Source of the DNA: a virus
IMG/VR virus record: IMGVR_UViG_3300045988_150584
Strand: one strand, 5' to 3'
DNA: 64,000 nucleotides
This document shows, piece by piece, positions 324 through 47,151 of the stretch. The notes beneath the pieces are model-generated. The model saw nothing but the letters and a program-made list of their open reading frames with translations, had not been told where the DNA came from and did no database searches. The translations under genes were made by a program, and so were the position numbers. How positions within the stretch are numbered: position 1 is the stretch's first letter; each line of letters opens with the position of its first letter.

Positions 324-326
324 ATA

Positions 327-22138: not shown

Positions 22139-22173
22139 GTAAGCAAATCCATTTTTCCACTGGTAGATACAAT
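22139..22173 (+). promoter_or_regulatory. class-A bipartite motif (copy 1)
   Basis: GTAAGCAAA-N14-GGTAGATACAAT. The offset between blocks is 23 nt, as in all other copies. Confidence 0.7.
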
Positions 22174-22210
22174 AGGAACGCTAAAAATAAAATGGAGGTT
22201 GAAGCGTCGG

Positions 22211-22387
22211 ATGAAACGGAACAGAAAAGCAACGCATATCCAGTGGGATGTTGACGAGCTGGAAGATTTGGAACTGCTGCCAACGGAAATTGATATTCCG
22301 GACGATATGACGGATATGGAGGAAATTTCCGACTATATCACAGATCAAACAGGTTTTTGTCATAACGGATTCATTGTGGAGGATTGA
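22211..22387 (+). CDS. small acidic protein
   Basis: MKRNRKATHIQWDVDELEDLE.. GGAGG is upstream. Confidence 0.5.
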   Translation: MKRNRKATHIQWDVDELEDLELLPTEIDIPDDMTDMEEISDYITDQTGFCHNGFIVED

Positions 22388-22390
22388 ATC

Positions 22391-22984
22391 ATGTCGATCA
22401 TGAAAATGTATGTCGAGGAATATCTTGCTGCCGAGCAGGTTGCAGAAAACCGCTATATCATTCATCTATCTAACGGAAAAGAGATCGAGGTTACAGAGCA
22501 TCCCGTGCATAACGGAAACATGTGGGACTGGAAAATTGATTCTCAGGTGTTTGACACGGATGACTACGCGCTGAATTATCTGAAAAAGCTTGTAGCAGAG
22601 AAGCAACGAGCGAAGCGCGAGGCGGAACGGACGCAGCGTGAGGCGGAAGAAGCTGCTTATGTAAAAGAGCGGAACGAAGCGGCACAAAAGAAAGTCGCGC
22701 AGGCCATCGAAACTTTGAAAAGCGGCGGATGTTTGGTTAATTTTGATGTTGAAATCTTCAAAAGCCGCTATCATAGTAGCTCGTACAGCATTTTCAATTA
22801 TCTGGCGCGTCAATATGGTGTAAAAATCCCAATTAAAACGCAAGGCTGGATCAATAGCAGTCTGCTGGATATCACGGTCAAAGATGGAAAGATGAGCGGC
22901 GGACATATGAGCGGGAAAAATCAATCGACCGTCATTTACAAGTATATGAATCAGTTGATCGAAGCAGTTGGAAAGGATGTGTGA
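22391..22984 (+). CDS. hypothetical protein
   Basis: GGAGG RBS. 197 aa with a central charged coiled-coil segment. Confidence 0.6.
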   Translation: MSIMKMYVEEYLAAEQVAENRYIIHLSNGKEIEVTEHPVHNGNMWDWKIDSQVFDTDDYALNYLKKLVAEKQRAKREAERTQREAEEAAYVKERNEAAQKKVAQAIETLKSGGCLVNFDVEIFKSRYHSSSYSIFNYLARQYGVKIPIKTQGWINSSLLDITVKDGKMSGGHMSGKNQSTVIYKYMNQLIEAVGKDV

Positions 22985-22988
22985 CTAA

Positions 22989-23261
22989 ATGGAAAGTCGC
23001 ATTAAAATCAAAGCTACAGTATCAGAAATGAGAGAGTTTTTTGAGAAAGATAGCGGTGTGCGTTATTATGAGATTAAAGATAAGCGCTACACGCAGGCGG
23101 AATTGGACGCCATGTCTAATGAAAAATACAATAGCGAGGTGTTTACATTTTCCGTTATCTATCGGTACATGGAGTTAGAAAAACCGCTGACCGGCGCATT
23201 TACCATTGAAGGGCTGACGAAAAAGATGGATGCGCTCAGAAAAGCCCATCATCTGCTATGA
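22989..23261 (+). CDS. hypothetical protein
   Basis: 90-aa ORF. Confidence 0.5.
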   Translation: MESRIKIKATVSEMREFFEKDSGVRYYEIKDKRYTQAELDAMSNEKYNSEVFTFSVIYRYMELEKPLTGAFTIEGLTKKMDALRKAHHLL

Positions 23262-23470
23262 AAAATTATATTGTATCACAAGATAGAAAGACTGGTTTAT
23301 GGTACGCACATATGAGAGGATACCAGCATGTCCCCGTCTCTGGCAGCTTTTCTGAAAAGCGCCGCGATGCAGCCGAATATGCGAAAATGTATAACGGACT
23401 TCCGCATAAGGTGGATGAGATCGAGCGGAAAAGAAGAGAAGCGTTTGAGAAAGAAATGGAAAAAGCCTGA
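23258..23470 (+). CDS. hypothetical protein
   Basis: 70-aa ORF overlapping the upstream stop. Confidence 0.5.
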   Translation: MKNYIVSQDRKTGLWYAHMRGYQHVPVSGSFSEKRRDAAEYAKMYNGLPHKVDEIERKRREAFEKEMEKA

Positions 23471-23491
23471 GATATTCTCAGGCTTTTTTTT
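23464..23491 (+). terminator. rho-independent terminator
   Basis: agcctgag-atatt-ctcaggct followed by T8. Confidence 0.8.
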
Positions 23492-23499
23492 GTTGCTCG

Positions 23500-23534
23500 G
23501 TAAGCAAAATCAAGTTTTTATCGGTAGTTATAGT
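23500..23534 (+). promoter_or_regulatory. class-A bipartite motif (copy 2), pointing into a minus-strand gene
   Basis: GTAAGCAAA-N14-GGTAGTTATAGT. The only downstream plus-strand ORF is a 23-codon one. Confidence 0.65.
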
Positions 23535-24025
23535 GTGGAGGCAAAGCGCCGCTTGAAATCGACATGCTGGCGTTCAAAGCAAGAGCAGATATCAGATCGC
23601 AGGCCGGTTTTCTTTCGATTGAAAAATCGGTTTAGTGTGTTTGTGATTTGCTTTTGGCTTGCCTCTGCAACGAAAAACTGTTCGGACTCATAGCCGCTTT
23701 TCGTTATATAGTTGATCTGGAAAACGATGATCGGCTTGCTGCGCGATGTTTTCAGACCGATATATGTATGGCAGTCGGAAATGATGTTTCCAAATGTGTC
23801 CGAATGAGTTGCTTGCATTTTCTGCATCTCTTTAACGGTGTAGCAGGTCTCCAGTGCGTCGTTGATGATGTATTGCTGGATGACCTGCGGAAGATCGCCG
23901 GTATACGGAAGCAGAATTTTGTCGTGGTATGCGCTGATAAACTGGATATCACGGAAAGAGATTTGCAAGGCTGCTTTTAACGGGCGAATGCGGAGAGCGA
24001 GATCGCATTTTGTATTGTTATTCAT
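23528..24025 (-). CDS. hypothetical protein on the opposite strand to its neighbours
   Basis: MNNNTKCDLALRIRPL.. after AAGGAG. 165 aa. Confidence 0.6.
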   Translation of the reverse strand: MNNNTKCDLALRIRPLKAALQISFRDIQFISAYHDKILLPYTGDLPQVIQQYIINDALETCYTVKEMQKMQATHSDTFGNIISDCHTYIGLKTSRSKPIIVFQINYITKSGYESEQFFVAEASQKQITNTLNRFFNRKKTGLRSDICSCFERQHVDFKRRFASTL

Positions 24026-24215
24026 TTGTTGTACGCTCCTTTCATGCTCTAATAATAGCACAAAAACGGCGAAAACTCAAGCAAAATGCACATTTTTATG
24101 ATGATTTTGTACGATTTATTGTATATTTTGCACAATGAATATTAGTGGATAAAATTCGGTGTTTTATCCATGAACAGCAGCTACAAATGTTGAAAGGTCT
24201 GGAGGAAGATACTGA

Positions 24216-24665
24216 ATGACTTCGTTTGATGGAGATAAAAAGATCGAAACGAAATATACTGCGGAATTTGTCACGGATAAAAAGGACTATGCCTATATTA
24301 TCGGTGGTCGTTATAACGATGGTGAGCCGTGGGAGAAATATCAGAAAAAAGAGTTTGATGACCTGGACAAAGCGCTGGAGTTTTATATGCGCGGTCTTGT
24401 GGACGATTCCTTTTTAGATATCAAGCTTTTTGAGCAGATTTTTGTAGATGGTGTTTGTCAAAGAGAGTCGTTTATCGAGCCGCCGAATACACTGCGCTTT
24501 TATCTCCGTACTACGGTCAATAAAGAGCTGGAGAAAGAAATCCGCTCTTTGCGTGAGAAAAATGAGCGATTGAATGAGGTCGGAGAGCTGATGCGCGAGT
24601 TTGTTCGCATGTATCATATGGAAGATCGTCTCAATGAGTTTATCAAAGAAAAATCAAAAATTTAG
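24216..24665 (+). CDS. hypothetical protein
   Basis: GGAGG RBS. 149 aa. Confidence 0.6.
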   Translation: MTSFDGDKKIETKYTAEFVTDKKDYAYIIGGRYNDGEPWEKYQKKEFDDLDKALEFYMRGLVDDSFLDIKLFEQIFVDGVCQRESFIEPPNTLRFYLRTTVNKELEKEIRSLREKNERLNEVGELMREFVRMYHMEDRLNEFIKEKSKI

Positions 24666-24699
24666 TAAGCAACCGCTCCGTTTGGAGGGTAGTTGTAAT
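24665..24699 (+). promoter_or_regulatory. class-A bipartite motif (copy 3)
   Basis: GTAAGCAAC-N14-GGTAGTTGTAAT. Confidence 0.65.
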
Positions 24700-24732
24700 A
24701 GGGAAACCTAAAAATTAAAGGAGGATTCAAAA

Positions 24733-24978
24733 ATGTCTGTCAATCTCAACAAGTCTGGTCTCGGTAAGTTTGCTGGTATGCGCGGTACAATTTTCAAGTC
24801 GGAGATCGCCGCTGCCAAGCCCAGTAAGCAGATCGTCGGTAAGGGTATCGGCAAGGGCTGTAACTATCCGATGGATTCCGATGCGGAGTTTGAGAAGCGC
24901 CTGCGCCGCTATGAGCGTAAGAAGCAGGCCGAGGAAGCTGCTGCCGCTGCTGCGGCGGCTGGTACGATGGAGGCGTGA
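24733..24978 (+). CDS. hypothetical protein (Ala-rich C-terminus)
   Basis: The leader AAGGAGGATTCAAAAATG is identical to that of the gene at 26689. Confidence 0.55.
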   Translation: MSVNLNKSGLGKFAGMRGTIFKSEIAAAKPSKQIVGKGIGKGCNYPMDSDAEFEKRLRRYERKKQAEEAAAAAAAAGTMEA

Positions 24979-24981
24979 GAT

Positions 24982-25293: not shown

Positions 25294-25309
25294 GATGAGA
25301 GGTGTATGT

Positions 25310-25525: not shown

Positions 25526-25610
25526 AATGAAGAAGATCATCGGCTAAAAGCAGCGCAGTTTTGGAATGGTGTCTGCGAAATCAAAAACCATACCCCATTT
25601 TTTTCGTTTT

Positions 25611-26117
25611 ATGAGTAAGCAAAACTCAGCTTTTGAGGGTAGATATAATAGGAGGTGTTTTATACATAAAACTTGTAAGATTTGTGGTCGTTCTTTTGAC
25701 GATGAGAACTGTGAGGGCGTTGTTGTCAACGAAGGTACGGATAACGAATATTTTGTTTGCGAGGATTGTGTTCCGGATGAATGCAACAATGGGCATATTA
25801 TTTCCTGCGAAAATTGTGGTTCGTATTTTACTCCTGATAGGCTGCACGATGAGCATATCGGGGGCTTTACTTTTACCGAATGTCCGGCCTGTGGGAAAGA
25901 TGTAGTGGAATGCGTATCACGAGAAGAGTTTGAGGAAGAGCATTTTCTTTCTAAATACTCTGTCATTGTCAGAATGGGCAATTATTCCCGTGGATATGTA
26001 ATTTCTGCGCAGAATCCCGCTGACATGATAAAAAAGTTGATGCGCCGTGCTGAGCTTTGCTCCGCCGCTGAGATCTCATATTCCGAAATTCTTATGGATG
26101 AGGATGTGATAAAATGA
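25611..26117 (+). CDS. Zn-ribbon protein, start codon unresolved
   Basis: CKICG..CEDC..CENCG..CPACG. The ATG at 25611 has no RBS and would read through the class-A motif. A perfect AGGAGG at 25650-25655 is followed 6 nt later by an in-frame ATA at 25662. Confidence 0.55.
   Translation: MSKQNSAFEGRYNRRCFIHKTCKICGRSFDDENCEGVVVNEGTDNEYFVCEDCVPDECNNGHIISCENCGSYFTPDRLHDEHIGGFTFTECPACGKDVVECVSREEFEEEHFLSKYSVIVRMGNYSRGYVISAQNPADMIKKLMRRAELCSAAEISYSEILMDEDVIK
25615..25649 (+). promoter_or_regulatory. class-A bipartite motif (copy 4)
   Basis: GTAAGCAAA-N14-GGTAGATATAAT, directly followed by AGGAGG. Confidence 0.7.
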
Positions 26118-26587: not shown

Positions 26588-26599
26588 TTTCAACGGCTG

Positions 26600-26634
26600 G
26601 TGTGCAAAGACGAAATTTTAGGGGTAGATATAAT
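26600..26634 (+). promoter_or_regulatory. class-A bipartite motif (copy 5, weaker first block)
   Basis: GTGTGCAAA-N14-GGTAGATATAAT. Confidence 0.6.
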
Positions 26635-26688
26635 AGAAAGCCCAAAACAATCATCACAACTACTTTCTACTTTAAGGAGGATTCAAAA

Positions 26689-28369: not shown

Positions 28370-28404
28370 GTGGGCAAAAGCCCATTTGAATGGGTAGATA
28401 TAAT
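28370..28404 (+). promoter_or_regulatory. class-A bipartite motif (copy 6, weaker first block)
   Basis: GTGGGCAAA-N14-GGTAGATATAAT followed by AGGAGG. Confidence 0.6.
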
Positions 28405-29918: not shown

Positions 29919-29935
29919 CTGAATATAACGACGAA

Positions 29936-29967
29936 AGACGCTGGAAAAACCAGCGTCTTTTTTTTTG
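29936..29967 (+). terminator. rho-independent terminator
   Basis: aagacgctgg-aaaaa-ccagcgtctt followed by a T-run. Confidence 0.8.
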
Positions 29968-29974: not shown

Positions 29975-30009
29975 GTGAGCAAATGGAATTTTTACAAGGT
30001 GGTTGTAGT
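29975..30009 (+). promoter_or_regulatory. class-A bipartite motif (copy 7, degenerate)
   Basis: GTGAGCAAA-N14-GGTGGTTGTAGT. Confidence 0.5.
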
Positions 30010-32354: not shown

Positions 32355-32630
32355 ATGGGAAAGTGCATTACAAGTTGTGGGAAGGACAAAGCTCGTTGCT
32401 GTACAGATGATTGTTTTCTCCGTGTTGCAGAAGGTAGCCGCCTGAGAGATTTGAAGTACAACAATATTGCGTGTTTCTGTAGCGGATTGTCCGTCTATGA
32501 TGACGGAAAAGAGGTTGCCTGCGGTTTTATCGGAGAGGTTCTTCGTTCCGTTGCACATCTGGCGGATCGTGAGATTGAGAGCTGCAACACATTTTTCGAT
32601 ATGTTTGTGATTCGTCTTAAAAAGAAGTAA
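32355..32630 (+). CDS. hypothetical Cys-rich protein
   Basis: AGGAGG RBS. 91 aa. Confidence 0.5.
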   Translation: MGKCITSCGKDKARCCTDDCFLRVAEGSRLRDLKYNNIACFCSGLSVYDDGKEVACGFIGEVLRSVAHLADREIESCNTFFDMFVIRLKKK

Positions 32631-32661
32631 GCAAATCAATATACCAGTTGGTAGTTATAGT
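32627..32661 (+). promoter_or_regulatory. class-A bipartite motif (copy 8)
   Basis: GTAAGCAAA-N14-GGTAGTTATAGT. The first block extends to GAAGTAAGCAAATCAATAT, which resembles class B. Confidence 0.7.
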
Positions 32662-32677
32662 GTATTGGAGGTGTAGC

Positions 32678-35600
32678 ATGAAATACAAATATTTAGGTCA
32701 GTCGATTCCGCAAGATAGCCGTCGTGAATTAAATAATAAGATCCTTTATCTTGTAGATAACGATTTGGCTGAGTCTTCTGGTATTACCTGCGAGGATATC
32801 TATAACGCTTACACTGGTGATGGTGGATTGCACGGTCTGCACTATTCTGATTACAACAGCTATTCCGAATACTCCAGCGCAAAGAAAGAAATTGAAAACG
32901 GTCAATTTTTCACACTGGATAGCGTATGCAAGTTTATCATGGATTGTCTCTCGTTGAGCAATCAGGATGTCTTTGCAGATCTGACATGTGGGATGGGCAA
33001 TTTTTTCAATTACGCGCCGATGGAGACAAACGCTTATGGTTGCGAATTGGATGCGAAAGCTTATAAGGTTGCACATTATCTATATCCAAAAGCAAATTTG
33101 ACCTGTGGAGATATTCGCAGTTATGAACCTGGTATCAAGCTGGACTATGTTGTTGGGAATCCGCCTTTCAATCTTCGTTGGTGGGTGGATGGCGCACAGA
33201 TTCTTTCTCAGCTTTACTATTGCCAGAAAGCCGCAGCTTTGCTAAAGCCTATGGGCATTATGGCGCTTGTTGTGCCGAAATCATTTCTGGCAGATGATTT
33301 TAGTGACGGCGGATTGGTTAAGGAGATGGAAAATCATTTTAGTTTCCTTGGTCAGTTTATGCTTCGCGCAGATACCTTTGCATCAACGGGCGTTGCCGAT
33401 TATGAGACAAAGGTACAGTTTTGGCAGCGAAATAGCGATATGGATAGCTGGAAACGGAATCCATACTCCACAGAGATGACGATGCAAGTGGATTGTATGA
33501 ACGCAACTATGGTCAGAAAAGTTCGTGAACAGATCGTAGCGGATGCTCAGGCAGTATTCGTGAAAAATCGTTCGCATATTTTACTGGAACTCGCAAGAGA
33601 TCACGATTCATCTGCTGAGTTTTTGTACAAAGTGAAGAAATACCTATATACAATTAAAACGCACCCAAATCTCAAAGAAAAATACACGAAATGCTGTGAA
33701 TATCTTAACCGTTATTATACGGAGAAGCAGCCTGAAAGTATGTCTTATGAAGAGTGGTGTCGCGTCCGCTTGACGGAGGCAAAAGTATTAGCTTATTTGC
33801 GGAATGTCGTAAAGCATCAGCATCCCGCTCAGTACGAAGATAAGATTTGTCTTGTAAAGCGGGACTATGATCTTGTGTATAAGGCATATAGCCCCAAAAT
33901 GGCGCGTCAATTATCGGATGGGATGAAAACGCCTACTCCGATTTATGATATTGCCATCAGCGAAGAAGATACGGAGCGGTATGGAAGATACGCTCGGCTT
34001 CTGCGTCGTAAACAGCACGAATACGGTGTTGAACAGCAAAAGTTTTCTGAAATGATTGAAGATACCGACATTAAGTCGTGGTTGGATGGTTTTGTTCTGC
34101 ATGACGAAGAAAATGAAGAAGATATTATGCTGAACGATTTGCAAAAACACGACATCAATCTTGTTCTACAAAAGCGATATGCTCTTTTGCAGTGGGAACA
34201 GGGCTGCGGTAAGACACTTGCCGGTATTGCTATCGGTCGTTATAGGATGGAACAGCAGAATGCGTTTTGCACATTTGTTGTCTCTTCTGCAATCTCAATA
34301 AAGAATACCTGGGATGTTATGCTCCCTAATTTCGGAGTCAGATATGTCATGGTGAACAGGCTCGTTGATCTTGACAAGGTGCAGCGTGGAGATTTTGTCC
34401 TCATTACACTGAACAAGCTTGGCAAATATCGTAAGCAAGTAAAGCGCTGGGTAAGGATTCATAATCAAAATATCGCACTTTGCTTTGATGAGAGCGACGA
34501 GATGACGAATCCATCCAGTTTACGCACGAAGTCTGTGCTGGACTGCTTTCGCCGCTGCCGTTTTAAGCTTGAGATGACTGGTACAAGTACACGGAATAAT
34601 ATCAGCGAGTTTGCACCGCAGTTGGAATTGGCCTATAACAATTCGTTCAACATGATTTCCTGGTGCAATACGATTTATCATTATGATCGAGCCAGCAAGA
34701 AAGACGGCGTTGAAGAAGGTCTCCATGTATACGGGAATCCGTATTATGGACAGCCTATCCCCGCATATCACAAGGGGTATAACCTTTTTGCAGATTCTCA
34801 CCTTCCGGAAAAGATCACGGTCTTTGGCGTTGGACAGAGAACGCAGGATATTTATAATGCGGACGAACTGGATAACATTCTTTCCAGATTTGTGATTACA
34901 CGGACGCTGGAAGAAATCTCTGGCAGAGATATCAAGCGTATCCACCAAGTCCCCGTTCGTTTTACGGAAAGCGAACGCGCGGTTTATACCAAAGCGATTG
35001 AAGAGTTTCATGTCATGCGTAGCAATTATTTTGCTTCGACTGGAAATTCTCGCAAGGATTCCATGATGCGACTTATTCAGCAAATTACGCTATTGCTCAG
35101 GATCAGCGCAGCTCCTAATACAATTCGTGAGTATGACGGAGGTTTGCCGACGAAAATTGCAAAAGTGATTGAGATGCTGCAGAGCATGGACGGCGAGATC
35201 GTAGCTGTCGGTGTACGGCACAAGGTTGTTGTTGATGCTTATGCAAAGGCAATTCGAGAAATCATGCCAGACAGACCTTTGTTTGTCGTTACTGGATCTA
35301 CTACTACGCTTGCAAAGCGTAGAGCATTGCGTAAGATCTTAAAAGAAAGCAAGAATGGAATCTTACTTTGTACGCAGCAAAGCTTGCCAAGTTCTGTGAG
35401 CTTTGAATATGTGGATAAGGTAATAATTCCTGAGCTGCACTACAACAATTCTCGGATGAGCCAGTTTTATATGCGCTTTATTCGTTTTACTTCTGAGCGG
35501 ATGAAAGATATCTATTTTGTTACCTATCTTGGAAGCATTGAGTCGAACCAGATGCAGATGGTGCTTGCCAAGGAAAAGATCAATATGTTCATGCGAGGGA

Positions 35601-35731
35601 AAGATACCGACTTGGATGAAATCTATAATCGGTTTGGTGTGGACTATAATCTTCTGTCTGCTCTGATGTCACGCGAGATGGATGAGAACGGGAAGTTCCA
35701 TATCCGGTGGGGTGAACAAGAAATTGCATGA
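32678..35731 (+). CDS. N6-adenine DNA methyltransferase fused to an SNF2/DEAD-like helicase
   Basis: N-terminus: DLTCGMGNFF (SAM motif I) and VVGNPPFNLRW (NPPF motif IV). Centre and C-terminus: LLQWEQGCGKTLAGIAI (Walker A), CFDESDEM (DExx) and a helicase C-like region. 1017 aa. Confidence 0.85.
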   Translation: MKYKYLGQSIPQDSRRELNNKILYLVDNDLAESSGITCEDIYNAYTGDGGLHGLHYSDYNSYSEYSSAKKEIENGQFFTLDSVCKFIMDCLSLSNQDVFADLTCGMGNFFNYAPMETNAYGCELDAKAYKVAHYLYPKANLTCGDIRSYEPGIKLDYVVGNPPFNLRWWVDGAQILSQLYYCQKAAALLKPMGIMALVVPKSFLADDFSDGGLVKEMENHFSFLGQFMLRADTFASTGVADYETKVQFWQRNSDMDSWKRNPYSTEMTMQVDCMNATMVRKVREQIVADAQAVFVKNRSHILLELARDHDSSAEFLYKVKKYLYTIKTHPNLKEKYTKCCEYLNRYYTEKQPESMSYEEWCRVRLTEAKVLAYLRNVVKHQHPAQYEDKICLVKRDYDLVYKAYSPKMARQLSDGMKTPTPIYDIAISEEDTERYGRYARLLRRKQHEYGVEQQKFSEMIEDTDIKSWLDGFVLHDEENEEDIMLNDLQKHDINLVLQKRYALLQWEQGCGKTLAGIAIGRYRMEQQNAFCTFVVSSAISIKNTWDVMLPNFGVRYVMVNRLVDLDKVQRGDFVLITLNKLGKYRKQVKRWVRIHNQNIALCFDESDEMTNPSSLRTKSVLDCFRRCRFKLEMTGTSTRNNISEFAPQLELAYNNSFNMISWCNTIYHYDRASKKDGVEEGLHVYGNPYYGQPIPAYHKGYNLFADSHLPEKITVFGVGQRTQDIYNADELDNILSRFVITRTLEEISGRDIKRIHQVPVRFTESERAVYTKAIEEFHVMRSNYFASTGNSRKDSMMRLIQQITLLLRISAAPNTIREYDGGLPTKIAKVIEMLQSMDGEIVAVGVRHKVVVDAYAKAIREIMPDRPLFVVTGSTTTLAKRRALRKILKESKNGILLCTQQSLPSSVSFEYVDKVIIPELHYNNSRMSQFYMRFIRFTSERMKDIYFVTYLGSIESNQMQMVLAKEKINMFMRGKDTDLDEIYNRFGVDYNLLSALMSREMDENGKFHIRWGEQEIA

Positions 35732-35735: not shown

Positions 35736-35770
35736 GTAAGCAAACGCAATATCTTGTGGGTAAATATATC
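35736..35770 (+). promoter_or_regulatory. class-A bipartite motif (copy 9, variant second block)
   Basis: GTAAGCAAA-N14-GGTAAATATATC. Confidence 0.55.
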
Positions 35771-35799
35771 AGAGGACACAAAAAGTCTTTTATCTTAGC

Positions 35800-35821
35800 A
35801 AAGGAGTTAGCAAATCAATAT
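35800..35821 (+). promoter_or_regulatory. class-B motif copy
   Basis: AAAGGAGTTAGCAAATCAATAT followed by TGGAGG. Confidence 0.45.
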
Positions 35822-35969
35822 TGGAGGTGTCATATGGGCTACTCTTTTATCCATCGTCGGCAGATACAATAGCGGAAGCGCATAAGGAATTGGCAAAAGA
35901 GCTGGAAGCGTCAAGAAAGATCGAATAAAATAAGCCTCCCCAAAACGGGGAGGCGGAAAGAGAGCATAT

Positions 35970-36173
35970 ATGGAAGAGACTTTCGTAAGAATGTGCAAGG
36001 TAAATGGTGTAACGCAGCGATTGAAAGATTTCTGGACGGTTTCTGTGAAGGATGGAAAATATGTGATATCAGCTAATGGGCAACCGATTTGTCATGGCGC
36101 TGTTCAACTCGGACAGACATGCGAAGCTATACTTCGTGAGTGCTGCGGCGGAGTATTCAGTAAAGTTAGTTAG
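35970..36173 (+). CDS. hypothetical protein
   Basis: 67 aa. Converges on the ImmA-like gene with an 8-nt overlap. Confidence 0.45.
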   Translation: MEETFVRMCKVNGVTQRLKDFWTVSVKDGKYVISANGQPICHGAVQLGQTCEAILRECCGGVFSKVS

Positions 36174-36780
36174 TAACTCTTTTCTGAAGGTATACACGAC
36201 GCATATCATTCTCCCAGGCGGTTTTTCGATGATATCTTGTCCATTTCACATATTCAGACCAGCGGTGTTCAGATGCTTCTTTGGATAGGCCAAATACGCG
36301 CTTGATATCTGATGGAGATTCAATTCTGAGTACCTCATACAGTGGCATAGGGCAAAGTAATGTGGCTGCAAATTGATCTGCTTCTGCTTCAAATTCCGGA
36401 GCAGTGAGGTTGTTAAAACCGTTTTCTGCAAGCATCGGTTCTGCGACCAGCGGAAGATGTTTTAGGATGACATGTCCAAGCTCATGTGCTTTTGTCCATA
36501 ATCTTCTCCCATCAACATTGTTATCGGCACAATCTTCATTCCACAGGATAAGATAACGGTCGTTTGCAATGTCATAGTGCGTACAGCCAGACTTGCTTTC
36601 ACACAGAATGATTACATCCCGAACGGTACACTGGTTGATTGCAGCAAACTCCTGATAGGTCAGCGCTCTACAGTTTGGTAACTGCGCAAGGATATCGCAG
36701 GTACAGATCGGGAATGAGATGCTGCCCATTCCCCTGTACACTTGCAATACTTGATTGTATATGTAAGGATATCTAATCAC
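36166..36780 (-). CDS. ImmA/IrrE-family zinc metallopeptidase
   Basis: HELGHVILKH (HEXXH). Sits immediately downstream of an XRE repressor. GTG start after GGAGG. Confidence 0.85.
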   Translation of the reverse strand: MIRYPYIYNQVLQVYRGMGSISFPICTCDILAQLPNCRALTYQEFAAINQCTVRDVIILCESKSGCTHYDIANDRYLILWNEDCADNNVDGRRLWTKAHELGHVILKHLPLVAEPMLAENGFNNLTAPEFEAEADQFAATLLCPMPLYEVLRIESPSDIKRVFGLSKEASEHRWSEYVKWTRYHRKTAWENDMRRVYLQKRVTN

Positions 36781-36836
36781 GGATATATACCTCCAGTGGG
36801 ATGTAGTATATCATATTCGGTGTCCAATAAAGCGGA

Positions 36837-37184
36837 CTAATTCTCGTCCTTAAAGGCATATTCAAAGCCCAGTCGGATCATTTTCATCATTTTTTCACGA
36901 TCTTGTGCTGACATTTTTGATTTTGCCCGCTGCAAGGAGACAAAATCATCATCCGATAGCAGTTCTTCCGCAGATGACGGAATGTCTGATAGTCCGATCA
37001 AGTAATCAGATGAAACGCCAAAGTATTTTGCGATGATCTTAACCTTATCAATAGACGGTGAAGTGTTTGTTTTCCATTTGCGGATTAAGGATGTCCCGAT
37101 TCCGAGATCTTCTTCCAATTTTGCCATAGTGATCCCGCGCTCAGCGCAAAGCTCCTTTATTCTAAGATACAAAATTGATTCCAT
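36837..37184 (-). CDS. XRE/Cro-CI family HTH repressor (ImmR-like)
   Basis: LRIKELCAERGITMAKLEEDLGIGTSLIRKWKTNTSPSIDKVKIIAKYFGVSSDYLIG. The start MESILYL follows GGAGG. Confidence 0.9.
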   Translation of the reverse strand: MESILYLRIKELCAERGITMAKLEEDLGIGTSLIRKWKTNTSPSIDKVKIIAKYFGVSSDYLIGLSDIPSSAEELLSDDDFVSLQRAKSKMSAQDREKMMKMIRLGFEYAFKDEN

Positions 37185-37226
37185 GTGGTTGTCCTCCAAT
37201 GCAGATAATATTTTCACGCTTTTCTA

Positions 37227-37255
37227 TTGACAGCGATAAGATATTCTGCTATACT
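37227..37255 (+). promoter_or_regulatory. sigma70-type rightward promoter of the switch
   Basis: TTGACA-17 nt-TATACT. It overlaps operator CGATAAGATATT (37234-37245). Confidence 0.7.
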
Positions 37256-37264
37256 GCGTAGTGT

Positions 37265-37280
37265 CGATAAGATATTATCG
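37265..37280. promoter_or_regulatory. palindromic operator
   Basis: CGATAA-GATA-TTATCG, located between the two predicted transcription start sites. Confidence 0.6.
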
Positions 37281-37291
37281 CTATGGTTGAA

Positions 37292-37320
37292 ATTATAGAC
37301 CATATTTTCACGGTTGTCAA
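37292..37320 (-). promoter_or_regulatory. sigma70-type leftward promoter for the repressor operon
   Basis: Minus strand TTGACA-17 nt-TATAAT, facing the rightward promoter. Confidence 0.7.
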
Positions 37321-37353
37321 CATGATAATCAATATTGGAGGGTGTGTATCAGG

Positions 37354-37797
37354 ATGAATGTATTAAACGGTTCAGAGCAGTATGAGATGAGAGCAGAGGA
37401 TTTTGGTATGGAGAGCGCACAGCCCGATAAGATCGTCCTCCCGTATCTTGGGATGTTATGGGGAGATTTTCTTTTGGATATTATGAACGCTGTATCTCGA
37501 AAGATGGCGCTTCCTCATGACGCATTATATGAGCAGCTTGTAAAACAAGTTTCTGCTGTATTCTCTTTTAATATTCAGCCGGCGCAAATTCGTATTATTG
37601 CCTATGTTGATGTATTCCCGTTTGACGGAACATCGTTTCGTGATCGAGTTTTTGTTCAGGCCAGTAATGATGAAATCGCCTCTGTGTTGGACAGGTTTTT
37701 TCAATGTGGTTGTTGTGGATTAGAAGATGACTATTCTACATATTATCACGAAAAATATATGGCGTGGCGCGAAGCAAAAAAAATAAAACTTATTTAG
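37354..37797 (+). CDS. hypothetical protein (first rightward gene of the switch)
   Basis: MNVLNGSEQYEM.. after GGAGGG. 147 aa. Confidence 0.55.
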   Translation: MNVLNGSEQYEMRAEDFGMESAQPDKIVLPYLGMLWGDFLLDIMNAVSRKMALPHDALYEQLVKQVSAVFSFNIQPAQIRIIAYVDVFPFDGTSFRDRVFVQASNDEIASVLDRFFQCGCCGLEDDYSTYYHEKYMAWREAKKIKLI

Positions 37798-41771: not shown

Positions 41772-41841
41772 AGAGCCGTTAAATAATCTTCTCGAACTGG
41801 TGAGCAATTCACAACTTCTCTGGGAAGATGTAATAAGAAAT

Positions 41842-41952
41842 GCAGAGGTAGCTCAGTCGGTAGAGCATCAGACAAAAAATGTGCTAAGCATTAGCGCTAA
41901 CAGCAATGTTAAAGGAATCCGAGTGTCGGAGGTTCAAGTCCTCCCCTCTGCG
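41842..41952 (+). ncRNA. tRNA gene P4 with a ~38-nt insertion in the anticodon loop (body Phe/Lys-like)
   Basis: - Perfect acceptor GCAGAGG/CCTCTGC.
- Canonical D-arm TAGCTCAGTCGGTAGAGC and T-arm GGAGG-TTCAAGT-CCTCC.
- Anticodon stem TCAGA/TCCGA encloses CAAAAAATGTGCTAAGCATTAGCGCTAACAGCAATGTTAAAGGAA. Confidence 0.6.
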
Positions 41953-42183: not shown

Positions 42184-42298
42184 GCCAGGGTAGCTCAATC
42201 GGTAGAGCGCGTAATAACGCGACTTGTTAAGCCGCTTGCAGCAAATTTCTTTTGGTCTGTTAAACCCGTGGTTGCAGGTTCGATTCCTGCCCCTGGCT
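42184..42298 (+). ncRNA. tRNA gene P5 (Asn-like CTGTTAA loop) with a ~44-nt insertion between the D-arm and the anticodon region
   Basis: Acceptor GCCAGGG/CCCTGGC, D-arm TAGCTCAATCGGTAGAGC, T-arm GCAGG-TTCGATT-CCTGC. The insertion carries GCAGCAAAT, and only a 3-bp GGT/ACC stem flanks CTGTTAA. Confidence 0.5.
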
Positions 42299-42384: not shown

Positions 42385-42502
42385 ACGGCAGTGGTGAAGC
42401 GGTAACACAGCAGCCATACAAATGCGAAAAGTGGATTTTCGCTAACAGCTATTTCACAATCCAAGCTGCCAATCGTAGGTTCGATTCCTACCTGCCGTTC
42501 CA
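42385..42502 (+). ncRNA. tRNA gene P6 with a ~43-nt insertion in the anticodon loop
   Basis: Perfect acceptor ACGGCAG/CTGCCGT. Anticodon stem GCAGC/GCTGC encloses CATACAAATGCGAAAAGTGGATTTTCGCTAACAGCTATTTCACAATCCAA. T-arm GTAGG-TTCGATT-CCTAC. CCA is encoded. Confidence 0.6.
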
Positions 42503-42562: not shown

Positions 42563-42626
42563 GAGACGCACACAGCAATTTGTAAGTAAAGTATTTAGCC
42601 TGATAAGCGGATTTCTTTTGCGTCTC
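42563..42626 (+). repeat. ACAGCAAT hairpin element (copy S8) closing the RNA cluster
   Basis: GAGACGC-ac-ACAGCAAT-(40 nt)-GCGTCTC. Confidence 0.5.
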
Positions 42627-42691
42627 GCCCCTCCTTTAAGACACAGACAGCATCGAATGTGAAATGGTGTCTTGAAGGCTATTTCAAACAA

Positions 42692-42712
42692 AAAGAAATT
42701 AGTTAAACAATT
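42692..42712 (+). promoter_or_regulatory. class-B motif copy directly 5' of an RBS
   Basis: AAAGAAATTAGTTAAACAATT followed by CAAGGAGG. Confidence 0.5.
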
Positions 42713-42728
42713 CAAGGAGGAAGAAAGT

Positions 42729-44273
42729 ATGAATGGTTTTATGTCTGCTATGAAAAGCACTTTGAACGATGAGTTCAATGTTTCTGTTACCGAAAACGGT
42801 GCTGTTGGCTATCGTACTACCGGCAAGGAACTATTGGATCTCAACTTTGCCGTTGCATCTCTTCGTAAGGCATCTCCGAGCGATATTGCAAACCGCTTCG
42901 TCAGAGCGTTTTTCGAGGATAAGATTACGGCAATGAAATGGCTGTTCTTTGCGCGTGATGTTCGTGGTGGTCTTGGCGAGCGTCGTTTGTTCCGCATCGT
43001 GTTTCAGCGTATGGCGGAGGAAAATCCGGAATACATCATTCCGCTGATTTCCCTTGTGCCTGAGTATGGACGCTATGACGATTTGTGGTGTTTGCTCGAT
43101 ACAAAGCTTGCACCTAATGTGCTGAACATCATTGCGCAGCAGCTCCGCGATGACATTCAGAATTTGAGCGATGGCAATAGTATTTCTCTTCTCGCAAAGT
43201 GGCTTCCGTCTGCGAATGCTCATTCCGCTGACGCAAAGCGTTATGCTAAGCAGATCTACAAGTTTATGGGCATTTCTGAGCGCGACTACCGTAAGGTGCT
43301 GTCCAAGCTGCGTTCTAAGCTGGATATCGTGGAGAAGAAAATGTCCGAAAAGCGTTGGGATGAGATTGCGTATGAAGCTGTCCCGTCTCGTGCAAATCTG
43401 ATTTACAACTCCGCATTCCTTCGTAACGACGAAGATCGCCGCCGCGATTTCCTGTCCCGTTTGGAAAAGGGCGAAACGAAAATCAATGCGTCTACGCTTT
43501 TCCCGCATGACATTGTTGCAAAGTATAGCGATGGCTGGCGTGGCCTGAAGCCTACGGATAAAACACTGGAAGCTCTTTGGAACGCACTTCCCGATACCGT
43601 AAACGGATGCGGCAATACCATCGTCGTTGCGGATGGCAGCGGCAGTATGACCGTGAATGTCGGTGGCAGCAATGTTACCGCACTGGCTGTTGCAAATGCA
43701 CTTGCGATTTATTTCGCAGAGCGTTCCTCTGGTCAGTTCAAGGACAATTACATTACATTTTCTGAGCATCCTCAGCTCGTCGATTTGAGTAAGGGCAAGA
43801 ATCTCCGCGAGAAGATTCAGATTGCGCTTAAACACAGCGAGGTAGCAAACACAAATATCGAAGCGGTGTTTGACCTTATCTTGACTACGGCAAAGAAAAA
43901 CAACATGGGACAGAGCGATCTTCCTGCAAATATCCTTATTATCTCCGATATGGAGTTTGACTACTGCGCAACATCGAATGGTGGAAGCAGATATAATCGT
44001 GGTCGCGTTGATTCTCGTCTGTTTGACAAGATTGCAAAGCGCTATGAGGATGCTGGGTATAAACTGCCAAGGCTCGTGTTCTGGAACGTGAATAGCCGCA
44101 CGAATACCATCCCTATTAAGGAAAACGAGATGGGAGTTGCGCTTGTAAGCGGTTTTAGTCCGAACATCGCAAAGATGGTGATGAGTGGTCAAACTGATCC
44201 GTATGAGTGTCTGCTTGAAACGCTGAACTCTGATCGCTATAAGCCTATCGGTGACGCTCTGGAAAATCAGTAA
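42729..44273 (+). CDS. DUF2828-family protein with a vWA/MIDAS-like domain
   Basis: N-terminus VTENGAVGYRTTGKELLDLNF.., GRYDDLW, and VVADGSGSM (DxSxS MIDAS-like). 514 aa. Family recalled from memory of plant and phage DUF2828 proteins. Confidence 0.65.
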   Translation: MNGFMSAMKSTLNDEFNVSVTENGAVGYRTTGKELLDLNFAVASLRKASPSDIANRFVRAFFEDKITAMKWLFFARDVRGGLGERRLFRIVFQRMAEENPEYIIPLISLVPEYGRYDDLWCLLDTKLAPNVLNIIAQQLRDDIQNLSDGNSISLLAKWLPSANAHSADAKRYAKQIYKFMGISERDYRKVLSKLRSKLDIVEKKMSEKRWDEIAYEAVPSRANLIYNSAFLRNDEDRRRDFLSRLEKGETKINASTLFPHDIVAKYSDGWRGLKPTDKTLEALWNALPDTVNGCGNTIVVADGSGSMTVNVGGSNVTALAVANALAIYFAERSSGQFKDNYITFSEHPQLVDLSKGKNLREKIQIALKHSEVANTNIEAVFDLILTTAKKNNMGQSDLPANILIISDMEFDYCATSNGGSRYNRGRVDSRLFDKIAKRYEDAGYKLPRLVFWNVNSRTNTIPIKENEMGVALVSGFSPNIAKMVMSGQTDPYECLLETLNSDRYKPIGDALENQ

Positions 44274-44288
44274 AACTCCAACCCAAAA

Positions 44289-44323
44289 GTAAGCAAACCA
44301 CGAAATAAGTGGGTAGTTAAAGT
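44289..44323 (+). promoter_or_regulatory. class-A bipartite motif (copy 10)
   Basis: GTAAGCAAA-N14-GGTAGTTAAAGT, followed immediately by GC hairpin gggcggcgg-acac-ccgccgccc (44325-44346). Confidence 0.65.
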
Positions 44324-44371
44324 AGGGCGGCGGACACCCGCCGCCCTATCATTATATCCGGAGGTTCGTTT

Positions 44372-44656
44372 ATGGACTTGGTTACAAAATATATTATGAC
44401 GCATTCTGATGGTCGCCGTCATCCTATTTGCGGCTCTGCTATTGCTGCTGCATTTTGTGTGTCGAGCGTTGAAGTGAGACGGCTTGTAAACGCCGCCCGT
44501 ACAAATGGTGATCCGATTTGTTCCAGTGGGCGTGGATACTACATTGCAAAGGACAAAGATGAAATCCAGAAAACAATCGAGTCTCTACAAGGTCGCATCG
44601 CTGGCATGAGTAATGCTGTGTCCGGACTGCAGCAGTATATGGAAGGAGCATTCTGA
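44372..44656 (+). CDS. winged-helix-like DNA-binding protein (putative)
   Basis: 94 aa, ..GSAIAAAFCVSSVEVRRLVNAARTNGDPICSSGRGYYIA.. The assignment rests on pattern only. Confidence 0.4.
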   Translation: MDLVTKYIMTHSDGRRHPICGSAIAAAFCVSSVEVRRLVNAARTNGDPICSSGRGYYIAKDKDEIQKTIESLQGRIAGMSNAVSGLQQYMEGAF

Positions 44657-44967
44657 TGCCAGATGTTGTTATGACGAATCATAGTGTGAAGCGAACAAAA
44701 GAAAGAATTGGACTAAGCAAGAAAATCGCAGATAAGAACGCGCAGAGAGCGCTTGAATACGGTGTTACGCACTCTGAGGCAAAAGGTGGCTTATGTCGGT
44801 ATCTTGATAAACTGTATCTGTCGAATGGTAATGCAAATAATGTTCGCGTTTATCACAGATATGTATATCTCTTTCGTGGGAACACGCTTTTGACAATCAT
44901 TCCATTACCAAACAAATTCTATGCTCTGGCGGACAAACTTCAAAAGCAGAAAGGCGAAATAGAATGA
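44656..44967 (+). CDS. hypothetical protein
   Basis: 103 aa, with a start/stop overlap. Confidence 0.5.
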   Translation: MPDVVMTNHSVKRTKERIGLSKKIADKNAQRALEYGVTHSEAKGGLCRYLDKLYLSNGNANNVRVYHRYVYLFRGNTLLTIIPLPNKFYALADKLQKQKGEIE

Positions 44968-45920
44968 GAATTGTAAAAACACATACTGGAAAAATTTATG
45001 TTGATAAGGATAAGAAACTGGAATTTTTAACGGTTGGCGACTATGGCAAGGAAAACAATATTAAAGCAAGTTTTCTTGGTTTGAACAAAGAAATCAACGG
45101 TGTTCAACATCATACGGTTGACCTGGCGGATAAGTGGGTTGCTACTATCAGCACTCAGAAAGGTTGTCCGATGAATTGCCAGTTTTGTGATTGCCCGAAG
45201 TATGGATTTCACGGAAATGTATCTCGTGAGGAACTGGCTTATGAAATTGAGACAATTCTTGCAAACGAACGAGTAACACATACTAATCGTTTCAATGTTC
45301 ACTTTGCTCGCATGGGTGAGCCTACATTCAACGATGCCGTTCTTCCGTTTGCTGAATTTGATTTGAAGCCGCTGGTTAAGCGGTTTATTACGGCAGATAC
45401 AATTCATCCTGTTGTTTCAACTATGCTTCCGAAAGCAAATGCCAATTTGAAGTCATTCATCATGGAATGGTGTCGCATTAAGAACAGTGTGTACAGTGGA
45501 GAAGCTGGTCTGCAATTTAGCATCAATTCGACGAATCAGGCGCAGCGTAATGAACAGTTTAACGGAAAGAGCTTATCCTTATCAGAAATTTCAAGTCTCG
45601 CATCTAAGCTTCCTACGCCGGTCGGTAGAAAATACACATTGAATTTTGCGGTAACGGCTGACACGATTTTGGATGCGGTGGAGCTTGGGAAGCTGTTCGA
45701 TAAGGAAAAGTTTATCGTAAAAATTACGCCGATTCACCAGACAAATGCAGCCATTAAGAATGGATTTGATGTGACCACGGAATATACTGACTACGATGTT
45801 TACCGCAAGTTTGAAGATCCACTTGTTGCTGCTGGATGGGATGTCATTGTGTTCGTACCGAGCGAGGAAGAAGATAGCGACCGTATTACTTGCGGGAATG
45901 CCTTAATTTCAGATAAGTGA
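44964..45920 (+). CDS. RlmN/Cfr-like radical SAM RNA methyltransferase
   Basis: STQKGCPMNCQFCDCP (CxxxCxxC), FARMGEPTFN (MGMGEP-like), and C-terminal DRITCGNAL (second catalytic Cys, CGQL-like). Confidence 0.65.
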   Translation: MRIVKTHTGKIYVDKDKKLEFLTVGDYGKENNIKASFLGLNKEINGVQHHTVDLADKWVATISTQKGCPMNCQFCDCPKYGFHGNVSREELAYEIETILANERVTHTNRFNVHFARMGEPTFNDAVLPFAEFDLKPLVKRFITADTIHPVVSTMLPKANANLKSFIMEWCRIKNSVYSGEAGLQFSINSTNQAQRNEQFNGKSLSLSEISSLASKLPTPVGRKYTLNFAVTADTILDAVELGKLFDKEKFIVKITPIHQTNAAIKNGFDVTTEYTDYDVYRKFEDPLVAAGWDVIVFVPSEEEDSDRITCGNALISDK

Positions 45921-45928
45921 GGTGCAGG

Positions 45929-46336
45929 ATGTACAAGCACTACGAAAACATTACAAGAGAAGTTTTGGATACAATAAAGGTTGGAGATTTGGTCAGAGTA
46001 AACGATTGGACGAGTCCAATGCTTGTGAAAGCGGTATCTAAGAATTTCTTTGTGATGACTTGTAAGAAAGGCGAAGATACATATTACTCTGTGTGTTCAA
46101 AACTGCCGTGGGACGGTATTCGTCACAATGCTATGGTTGGCGGCATGTTCCATTGTGGATGTGATGATTGGATTTTCGGGACGCCGCTTGGAATTAGAGA
46201 CGAAAACATCTACCAGTTTAATGATCCGGAGTTAAATAGGTTGTATCTACAAGAGTTTGAGGATGGTAAAACGCACATTTCTGAACGAAATGGAGCTGCT
46301 ATCTATGATTTGTATGTAGAGCGCTGTGATGACTAA
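45929..46336 (+). CDS. hypothetical protein
   Basis: MYKHYENITREV.. after GAGGTG. Confidence 0.5.
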   Translation: MYKHYENITREVLDTIKVGDLVRVNDWTSPMLVKAVSKNFFVMTCKKGEDTYYSVCSKLPWDGIRHNAMVGGMFHCGCDDWIFGTPLGIRDENIYQFNDPELNRLYLQEFEDGKTHISERNGAAIYDLYVERCDD

Positions 46337-46350
46337 GGAGGTTATGCAAG

Positions 46351-46626
46351 ATGGTTGTAAGTCTACGCGAAATAGTGATGTCGCATGAAAAGATTTATTC
46401 GCTGCTCTATTCTCCGTGTAGAATCGAGAGTGACCCGATTGAAAAGCAGATTGTAGAAATTAGTACGAAGTCTCTGCGTTGGTCGGATGATGGGACGATG
46501 TTTGTCTATGTCTGGGGTTGGCCTGGGCCGGACTTTAACAGATATTCTGCAAAGACATACGGAAAAGGCTGGGCATTTACAAAACAGGAAATCATTGATG
46601 CCTGGGAGAGCGAGAATAGGAAGTAG
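46351..46626 (+). CDS. hypothetical protein
   Basis: AAGGAGG RBS. 91 aa. The stop TAG lies inside a class-B motif. Confidence 0.5.
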   Translation: MVVSLREIVMSHEKIYSLLYSPCRIESDPIEKQIVEISTKSLRWSDDGTMFVYVWGWPGPDFNRYSAKTYGKGWAFTKQEIIDAWESENRK

Positions 46627-46637
46627 CAAATCAATCC
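46616..46637 (+). promoter_or_regulatory. class-B motif copy overlapping a stop codon
   Basis: ATAGGAAGTAGCAAATCAATCC. Confidence 0.4.
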
Positions 46638-46729
46638 TATGTACAGTTCATTTCTTAAAATAATTCACTGAAAAACACAGAGTTTTTCGTTGCAAGCAAG
46701 CGCAACTAATGATTGGAGTGTAATTTGCC

Positions 46730-47110
46730 ATGCCCCTTAAAACACCTGAATCACAGCGACGAATGGCTGAAATGCAGCACATGAGAGACTGTGGATTTAC
46801 TTTGCAGCAAATCGGAGATCAATATGGAATAAGCCGAGAGCGAGTTCGTCAGATTGTAAATAACATTCACAAGAAAAAGCGTACTTGTGGTGTGAAAAAT
46901 ATCTGCTATCCAAATTTCAAAAAATGGGCGCTTGATAATGGGTATTCCACTTTAACAAAGCTTGCTAATGATATGGATATGTGTTCATCTCTTGTTAGAA
47001 GTCTTCTGATCAAGGGTGAACCCCCTACAAAGCGCTCCATTAGGAAGATAACTGAATTCACTGGAATGTCTGCGGATGAAGTATTTTATCTACCGGATGT
47101 TGCAGCGTAA
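46730..47110 (+). CDS. sigma70 region-4-type HTH protein
   Basis: GFTLQQIGDQYGISRERVRQIVNNI. Confidence 0.6.
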   Translation: MPLKTPESQRRMAEMQHMRDCGFTLQQIGDQYGISRERVRQIVNNIHKKKRTCGVKNICYPNFKKWALDNGYSTLTKLANDMDMCSSLVRSLLIKGEPPTKRSIRKITEFTGMSADEVFYLPDVAA

Positions 47111-47116
47111 AGATTG

Positions 47117-47151
47117 GTAAGCAAATTGTTATTACGATGGGTAGTTATAAC
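47117..47151 (+). promoter_or_regulatory. class-A bipartite motif (copy 11)
   Basis: GTAAGCAAA-N14-GGTAGTTATAAC. Confidence 0.65.

Follow-up and report, generated by a model that had tools for sequence, protein, structure and literature searches.

What reads a 35-bp two-block motif that recurs, always in the same orientation, through the rightward gene cluster of the viral record IMGVR_UViG_3300045988_150584? The stretch analysed here, 64,000 nucleotides long and called the window throughout, has the layout of SPbeta-like phages and encodes both a YonO-like single-subunit RNA polymerase and a sigma-like protein. A preliminary description of the sequence listed 11 copies of the motif, proposed that they form a phage-specific promoter class, and named as candidate readers the YonO-like enzyme and host RNA polymerase (RNAP) equipped with the sigma-like protein. 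Comparison with related phages supports the promoter reading well, and we suggest, at a probability of roughly two in three, that the copies are phage middle promoters read by the sigma-like protein together with host core polymerase.

Distribution, register and probable start site of the motif

We searched both strands of the window for GTAAGCAAA-N14-GGTAGWTATART with up to three mismatches. The search returned 12 copies, all on the plus strand between 21027 and 47151, and none on the minus strand; 0.01 copies are expected by chance, and none of 100 shuffled sequences reached 12. All 11 copies of the preliminary description were recovered at exactly the coordinates given there, and the copy at 21027 is a twelfth. 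A weight matrix built from the window sites, the kind of motif model that had been proposed, was then scanned over both strands; it sets 12 strong sites (33-44 bits) and two weaker plus-strand sites, at 41800 (27.7) and 20498 (16.5), apart from a background of at most 7.7 on either strand. All 14 copies lie on the plus strand between 20.5 and 47.2 kb, and the 23-nt register from the start of one block to the start of the other, claimed for the original set, is invariant in 14 of 14. The copies and the terminators beside them are as follows.

20498-20532, plus strand: weak copy, GTAAGCAAA-N14-GGAGGGTGTAGC, just 3' of the sigma-like gene and ahead of the open reading frame (ORF) at 20535-20822
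21027-21061, plus strand: copy absent from the earlier list; AGGAGG abuts it, with ATG at 21075
22139-22173, plus strand: copy found by pattern search and weight matrix
23460-23488, no strand assigned: bidirectional intrinsic terminator immediately 5' of the copy at 23500
23500-23534, plus strand: copy directly 3' of that terminator, pointing into the 3' end of the minus-strand gene at 23528-24025
24665-24699, plus strand: copy that begins on the last base of the preceding stop codon
25615-25649, plus strand: copy with perfect consensus, abutted by AGGAGG
26600-26634, plus strand: copy ahead of the DUF932 gene, at an orthologous position in five phages
28370-28404, plus strand: copy of the GTGGGCAAA variant, abutted by AGGAGG
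29933-29961, plus strand: intrinsic terminator immediately 5' of the copy at 29975
29975-30009, plus strand: copy 13 nt 3' of that terminator
32627-32661, plus strand: copy ahead of the SNF2-helicase/methylase gene at 32648-35731, found by pattern search
35736-35770, plus strand: copy 3' of the SNF2 gene, found by pattern search
41800-41834, plus strand: weaker copy, GTGAGCAAT-N14-GGAAGATGTAAT, 7 nt 5' of the tRNA-like gene at 41842
44289-44323, plus strand: copy with a GC-rich hairpin beginning 1 nt past the motif
47117-47151, plus strand: last copy in the window, followed by a long gap-poor run of genes

The motif is conserved well beyond this element. Homologues of the sigma-like protein number 224, down to about 40% identity, and the loci of those with 43-67% identity are syntenic, with a YonV_C-domain protein, a recombinase-like protein, the sigma-like gene on the opposite strand, and many small genes. 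In more than ten divergent syntenic phages (sigma-like proteins 41-67% identical) the plus strand downstream of the sigma-like gene contains 8-15 copies per 10 kb, again with the 23-nt register; L074 is an exception, with about eight copies identified by eye, two of which have a 15-nt spacer. In a further 66 viral loci, compared with a protein alignment, candidate sites were chosen by the downstream block alone, and the upstream block emerged at the fixed register. A copy lies 80-95 nt ahead of DUF932 in the window, L070, L073, L074 and L079, and another lies directly 3' of the sigma-like gene in seven lineages, including L070, L073, L074, L075, L079 and L095. Conservation at orthologous positions, on which the preliminary description had let its proposal hang, is thus found both at DUF932 and after the sigma-like gene; the shared register and shared positions in many divergent relatives argue, at the level of sequence comparison, for a phage-specific promoter class. 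Near-identical DNA was absent from reference phage and plasmid records (megablast of 19-36 kb); at 99% identity the element matches a contig from an uncultured Oscillospiraceae genome bin, as well as about a dozen metagenome viral contigs of 64-127 kb.

We next derived a consensus from 82 sites in seven phages, for which upstream positions 1-6 helped to choose the sites and position 36 did not. The upstream block reads G-T-(T/A)-A-(G/A)-(C/T)-A and the conserved downstream core (G/T)G(T/A)A(G/A)nTA. Within the "TATAAT", the four final bases differ by lineage (TAAT, TAAC, ATAT, AAGT, AnAC), and its final base, position 35, is C in 32 of the 82 sites, including 14 of 14 from L076. All 82 sites have a pyrimidine at position 35 and a purine at position 36, the first base past the motif; pyrimidine/purine is the usual -1/+1 pair of bacterial polymerase. 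In half of the sites (41/82) a Shine-Dalgarno core lies no more than 4 nt past the motif end, with the start codon 4-11 nt further. Four of these 41 (L073 17728; L076 17024, 19720 and 20290) have a strong terminator inside the promoter; their Shine-Dalgarno would be useless if RNA began 7 nt further, which supports a start at the motif edge. We infer that transcription starts at the purine directly after the motif, in agreement with the earlier proposal of initiation at the motif edge, which the invariant pyrimidine/purine pair and the fused Shine-Dalgarno sequences support.

With +1 at position 36 the two blocks begin at -35 and -12, and positions 1-6 are separated from positions 24-29 by exactly 17 bp in 14 of 14 window copies and in the family sites, a spacing that presupposes GGTAG(A/T), not TATAAT, as the -10 hexamer. 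So assigned, the predicted arrangement is canonical sigma-70-family geometry. The preliminary description had considered the upstream block too distant from the TATAAT-like hexamer to be a -35 element; this is correct for that hexamer, but the block lies exactly 17 bp from GGTAG(A/T), the better -10 candidate. No TTGACA-like hexamer is present 16-18 bp from TATAAT in the motif copies, where positions 7-12 are unconserved, whereas a -35 is present at housekeeping-type sites in other parts of the window. The missing -35 before TATAAT and the final C in 32 of the 82 sites argue against a housekeeping (sigmaA/sigma70) promoter.

The window copies fall into two sub-types by positions 29, 34 and 36, one with GGTAGATATAAT followed by AGG and the other with GGTAGTTA(T/A)AGT followed mostly by GT or GA. 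The same split is seen in L079 (TAATAT-AGGAGG versus TAAAGT-GTAGGA), and could mean a 2-nt shift in start site or two strength classes.

The signals flanking the copies agree in part with what had been described. Intergenic placement fits the gene calls, with the copy at 23500 abutting the 3' end of a minus-strand gene, except at 25615, where the called ATG lies upstream of the motif. That call (public gene call, ATG at 25566, upstream of the promoter and lacking a Shine-Dalgarno) is probably a miscall; past the AGGAGG at 25650-25670 there is no in-frame ATG, GTG or TTG, the nearest candidate being ATA, 6 nt downstream, and a non-canonical start codon may be used 3' of this copy. A position just after a terminator, said to be frequent, was recovered by a pattern-based terminator scan for 23500 and 29975 and not for the remainder. 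A ribosome-binding site within 0-50 nt is present after the protein-coding copies and absent at 41800, which precedes a tRNA-like gene, and AGGAGG does occur at the motif end at 21027, 25615 and 28370.

A signal acting in translation or at the RNA level was also considered and rejected. The motif is no translation signal because copy 41800 precedes a tRNA-like gene without a Shine-Dalgarno, and both 23500 and a copy at 893 in L046 face the 3' ends of opposite-strand genes. Copies aimed in this way (window, 23500-24025; L046, 893-925; L071, 13711) would give antisense RNA; a transcript from 23500 would be antisense to the gene at 23528-24025. The L046 copy belongs to a 127-kb relative, in which it lies some 38 kb to the left of the window among genes of the minus strand, one of which may be structural.

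RNA structure at the motif is limited to certain lineages. We folded 72 sites and compared their energies with shuffles; in the window, L070, L071 and L072 the mean folding energy equals that of shuffled sequence, with no excess stability. In L073 (13260, 13795, 15303, 17728, 20293) and L076 (17024, 17585, 19720, 20290), strong, GC-rich stems enclose the upstream block, with the -35-like block in the loop and a T-run after, at -12 to -23 kcal/mol versus about -6 for shuffled sequence. These stems are best read as intrinsic terminators embedded in the next promoter, a lineage-limited feature. N4 virion-polymerase promoters need a hairpin; an N4-type hairpin promoter, or a structured spacer RNA, is ruled out here by the confinement of stable stems to L073 and L076. 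At 44289 the adjoining hairpin would form the transcript 5' end.

A sigma-like protein as candidate reader

The proposed reader is encoded immediately upstream of the first copy.

19641-20423, plus strand: gene for the sigma-like protein, 260 aa, with an N-terminal Gp111-like domain followed by sigma-2-like and sigma-4-like domains
18701-18729, plus strand: housekeeping-type promoter-like site, TTGCAA-17-TG-TATAAT, ahead of a three-gene operon ending with the sigma-like gene

The sigma-like gene is the third of the rightward small-gene cluster, which begins at 18.8 kb. Pfam gives weak Sigma70_ECF and r4_2 matches, and TIGR02937 (sigma-70/ECF superfamily) matches residues 98-250, spanning both domains, in 29 of 30 homologues. 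In a Foldseek search of the PDB with an AlphaFold model of the protein (mean pLDDT 74.6), the top ~45 matches are all sigma factors (SigB, SigH, sigmaE, SigW, WhiG). The computed fold is sigma-like, and the protein most likely belongs to the sigma-70 family as a highly divergent, ECF-like member carrying an additional domain at its N terminus.

The N-terminal domain, residues 9-90 in the window protein, matches Pfam Phage_Gp111, as do 23 of 30 homologues; weak matches to the NCBIfam AcrIIA3 anti-CRISPR family occur in 10 of 30 (best E 1.6e-4). A tblastn search with the sigma-like protein found one distant match in the phage collection and none in the plasmid collection, in which the presence of pBS32 was not checked. 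An N-terminally shortened homologue (209 aa, 54% identity) is encoded at 10001-10630 in L078, in a small island beside resolvase and helix-turn-helix genes and with apparent bacterial chromosomal genes nearby; there are no motif copies around it, and it looks like a remnant or domesticated copy.

Protein and motif are linked by the region-4 recognition helix and the upstream block, which vary together in three classes.

Helix AAVH(K/F)RI, upstream block TAAGCA: window, L074
Helix (V/P)AVHKRI, upstream block TTAGCA: L071, L072, L076, L079, L104-L126, L128
Helix PA(V/I)(C/N)KRL, upstream block TTAAT: L070, L073, L075, L095, L099

The match holds across the downstream classes GGTAG, GGAAGG, ATTAG, GTTAG, TGTA and TGTTATAT, and in L075, a short contig, TTAAT was predicted from the helix and then confirmed. 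The upstream block therefore varies apart from the -10 class, as expected if regions 4 and 2 each recognise a block of their own. This correlation, with three classes tracking in more than ten lineages, suggests that the -35 block is specified by the region-4 recognition helix.

We propose the following mechanism. Host RNAP with its housekeeping sigma would transcribe the three-gene early operon from the site at 18701, ending with the sigma-like gene, whose product would bind host core polymerase. Its C-terminal helix-turn-helix (region 4) would read GTAAGCA at -35 to -29, and its region-2-like domain GGTAG(A/T)TA at -12 to -5; the A/T-rich, TATAAT-like tail (-6 to -1) would melt, and RNA would begin at the conserved purine just past the motif. 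In half of the family sites the transcript would then open with the Shine-Dalgarno itself. The 13-14 promoters would drive small units of anti-defence, DNA- and RNA-metabolism and tRNA-like genes, often restarting transcription right after, or overlapping, an intrinsic terminator, and YonO would handle late genes outside the window. Host core use and middle timing are, like the start site, inferred.

Several points weigh against this reading, the whole case for which is comparative. The TIGR02937 score of the sigma-like protein, 33.6 bits, falls below the curated cut-off of 42.9; the Foldseek matches have E-values of only about 3e-3 and low TM-scores; and in a profile search of solved structures the C-terminal helix-turn-helix resembles AsnC/Lrp-type regulators as well as sigma region 4. 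Helix and upstream-block classes are partly co-inherited, with few independent changes, and the sigma-like, recombinase-like and YonO-like genes are syntenic family-wide, so that presence or absence cannot separate the three inside the family. Strong conservation up to +2 is more usual in single-subunit phage polymerases. The closest sequence analogue, the -10 region CCAGATATAAA of the plasmid-encoded SigN, starts RNA 7 nt past TATAAA and not at the edge (PMC6751061).

The SigN (ZpdN) regulon of pBS32 in Bacillus subtilis is the nearest system on record; SigN is itself a weakly ECF-like sigma, with about 19 near-identical promoters (PMC6751061). As proposed here, it is encoded by the element whose own DNA- and nucleotide-metabolism operons its promoters precede (PMC6751061), and AGATATAA is common to both -10 regions, CCAGATATAAA for SigN and GGTAGATATAAT in the window. 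In contrast, the SigN -35 is TTTACGTTT, 16-17 bp from TATAAA, with the mapped start 7 nt past the hexamer (PMC6751061), whereas here an extra 6 bp separate the upstream block from the hexamer, at whose edge the start would fall; and SigN auto-activates, whereas no motif copy lies ahead of the sigma-like gene. The motif does not belong to the SigN class, defined by TTTACGTTT at -35, CCAGATATAA(A/T) at -10 and a SigN orthologue: only AGATATAA is shared.

Among phages, SPO1 gp28 and gp33/34, T4 gp55 and phiEco32 gp36 send host core polymerase to a phage-specific, repeated two-block consensus. The window resembles these systems in having a two-block consensus before a temporal gene class and differs in the consensus sequences, which are unrelated; unlike them, it also encodes a YonO-like polymerase, implying three transcription tiers, and its sigma carries an N-terminal Gp111-like domain. 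A phage sigma with cognate promoters is a known, ordinary kind of phage gene control; the phage family is unstudied.

Alternative readers and roles

Two further proteins of the window enter into the alternatives, the second as a rival binder of the motif.

6437-9133, minus strand: YonO-like single-subunit RNA polymerase (Pfam RdRP, phrog_8308), 47% identical to SPbeta YonO
16834-17598, minus strand: tyrosine-recombinase-like protein (Pfam Phage_integrase), divergent from the sigma operon

The alternative that fares best, which we nevertheless consider unlikely, is that the YonO-like RNAP reads the motif, alone or with the sigma-like protein as specificity factor, and starts at its edge in the manner of T7. 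Conservation is continuous from -12 to +2 and includes the initiating AG(G/A), as in promoters of single-subunit phage polymerases; terminators bracket many short units; and in 28 of 77 related loci, even where YonO identity is 20-25%, the sigma-like gene has a YonO-like gene no more than 10 kb away. In SPbeta, YonO has a single start, upstream of yonK, from which it transcribes one late operon (PMC5467207), and the interval between the primer-extension primers of that study, which must hold the start site, contains no motif copy; the comparison is a weak one, as the YonO consensus is left undefined there, which itself leaves room for a YonO reader. SPbeta and Clostridium phage D-1873 possess YonO and have neither a sigma-like homologue nor the motif. 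Furthermore, the motif keeps to the early/middle cluster, whose direction is opposite to that of the YonO gene, and its upstream block changes in step with the region-4 helix of the sigma-like protein. The flap insert to which sigma region 4 binds is missing from YonO-type enzymes (PMC7824862), and for a sigma-free enzyme the -35/17 bp/-12 geometry would be a coincidence. Of the two readers named in the preliminary description, co-variation, geometry and the motif-less YonO phages point to the sigma-like protein with host RNAP and away from YonO, which is probably the late-gene polymerase.

A variant that makes the sigma-like protein a partner not of host polymerase but of the YonO-like enzyme, as a detachable subunit for promoter recognition, is compatible with the data because of the family-wide co-conservation and the conservation up to +2; we regard it as quite improbable. 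If it were true, an ancient polymerase lineage would have its first known promoter consensus in the motif and its first known initiation factor in the protein.

In SPbeta itself (L001), TAAT(G/A)(T/G)TCATTTATGA(A/G)GGT occurs twice on the minus strand, at about 5600 and about 5450, ~150 nt apart, one copy within the mapped YonO-start interval and the other just upstream. These are candidate YonO promoters and were not found in the window. The repeated TCATTTATGARGGT from the same interval is not enriched in the window (2 matches versus 1 expected).

Like the motif, T7/SP6-class promoters are conserved into the start site and occur in many copies that all point the same way. T7-type promoters form one contiguous ~23-bp block with no separate -35. 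The motif differs from these and from N4 promoters in its two blocks and its lineage-limited hairpins, and no T7-like polymerase gene is present in the window.

Next in order, and in our judgement improbable, is that housekeeping sigma uses the TATAAT-like -10 while a phage activator on the upstream block replaces the -35, with a start about 7 nt past the motif; the sigma-like protein could be this activator, in the manner of T4 MotA. In most window copies the TATAAT is near-perfect, the AGG after the motif is like a G-rich discriminator, transcription from SigN promoters, which have a similar AGATATAA, begins 7 nt downstream, and the tRNA-like gene at 41842 begins 7 nt past copy 41800, as such a start would have it. 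The hexamer itself, however, ends in C at 32 of the 82 sites, including all 14 of L076, and is degenerate in L073, L079 and L128. A +7 start would also strip the Shine-Dalgarno from 41 of 82 transcripts and cut the 5' hairpin at 44289, and the pyrimidine/purine pair at the motif edge is universal.

Least probable of the rivals that we weighed, and very unlikely, is that the motif is mainly an operator, SPBRE-like and bound by the 16834-17598 protein, or a cassette edge for module shuffling, and not a promoter. SPBRE is the operator of the recombinase-like repressor MrpR in SPbeta (PMC10516654); like the motif, it recurs between genes of the early cluster in a phage that encodes YonO, and it lies over a -10 or directly before a Shine-Dalgarno. 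The recombinase-like gene is syntenic in 61 of 77 related loci, gene content between the copies varies among relatives, and a partial duplicate of promoter and leader flanks the SNF2 gene. Yet SPBRE consists of one AT-rich block, CAAATACAAAWAATATGTATATA, to which a repressor binds, and it lies downstream of or overlaps ordinary housekeeping-type promoters; the motif is unlike it, and the recombinase-like protein has no significant similarity to MrpR/YopR of SPbeta (E 0.55). Homology to the SPBRE/MrpR system is ruled out on these grounds, the SPBRE having been derived from SPbeta. Two blocks and a pyrimidine/purine pair at fixed distance are a promoter signature, and the motif must start transcription at 23500 and 29975 because a terminator lies directly upstream with no space for another promoter. 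An operator or shuffling role could exist alongside promoter activity.

The duplication at the SNF2 gene involves the promoter and leader at 32605-32661, which recur in part 3' of the gene at 35775-35835 (TCTTA..AAAG.AGT.AGCAAATCAATAT...TGGAGGTGT); it looks like the scar of a cassette insertion via recombination between promoter repeats. T4-type promoter-early stem-loop (PeSL) cassettes are repeated promoter and stem-loop modules that flank small, variable early genes, may promote module shuffling, and use host housekeeping sigma. The likeness lies in the repeated promoter modules; shuffling here is hinted at by the one partial duplication only.

Neighbouring features and implications for the phage family

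Within the SPbeta-like layout, an HU-like gene follows the YonO-like gene, and then tRNA genes, a transfer-messenger RNA (tmRNA) and a ROOL RNA. This non-coding array, at 79-4157 on the minus strand, comprises 15 tRNA genes, the tmRNA (1683-2100) and, at 3288-3895, the ROOL RNA, which is full-length (400 bits). Just ahead of tRNA-Thr and ROOL, at about 4050-4022, lies a housekeeping-type site, TTGACA-17-TATACT. The equivalent place in SPbeta (yonN-yonK) is a 1.7-kb non-coding stretch in which the only match is to a small DUF3800-VIII RNA.

The stretch from 20.5 to 47.2 kb combines the motif copies with genes for DUF932, the SNF2-helicase/methylase and a Ro60-like protein, and past 47.2 kb follow RNA ligase, kinase, methyltransferases and Erf. 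Three sequences on the plus strand (41842-41952, 42184-42298 and 42385-42499) match a tRNA model end to end, with 44-, 49- and 55-nt insertions replacing the anticodon loop; ARAGORN makes no call on them. They adjoin the Ro60/TROVE-vWA gene (42672-44273) and lie upstream of the RNA ligase (52491-53930) and a polynucleotide-kinase-like gene (54775-55791), and may be tRNAs with introns, or decoys, on which phage RNA-repair enzymes act. Elsewhere in the cluster, two near-consensus housekeeping-type sites face each other at 37205-37320, between the ORFs at 36166-37217 (minus strand) and 37342-37797 (plus strand). These sites, TTGACA-17-TATAAT on the minus strand and TTGACA-17-TG-TATACT on the plus strand, may form a second regulatory switch within the motif-bearing cluster.

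We suggest that the 13-14 promoters predicted in the window amount to a regulon map, available at once and open to testing, for a large family of uncultivated, 65-150 kb phages, known mainly from human and animal gut metagenomes and represented in the window by a phage found in an Oscillospiraceae genome bin. The family would combine three RNA-making routes: host housekeeping sigma, phage sigma and YonO-like polymerase. If the start is the first Shine-Dalgarno base, its transcripts would have unusually minimal 5' leaders. Subtracting the motif promoters narrows the hunt for the YonO promoter. The TAAGCA, TTAGCA and TTAAT classes would be natural, matched variants of sigma helix and -35 block for studying DNA reading by a very divergent ECF-like sigma, and could serve as orthogonal expression parts for Firmicutes.

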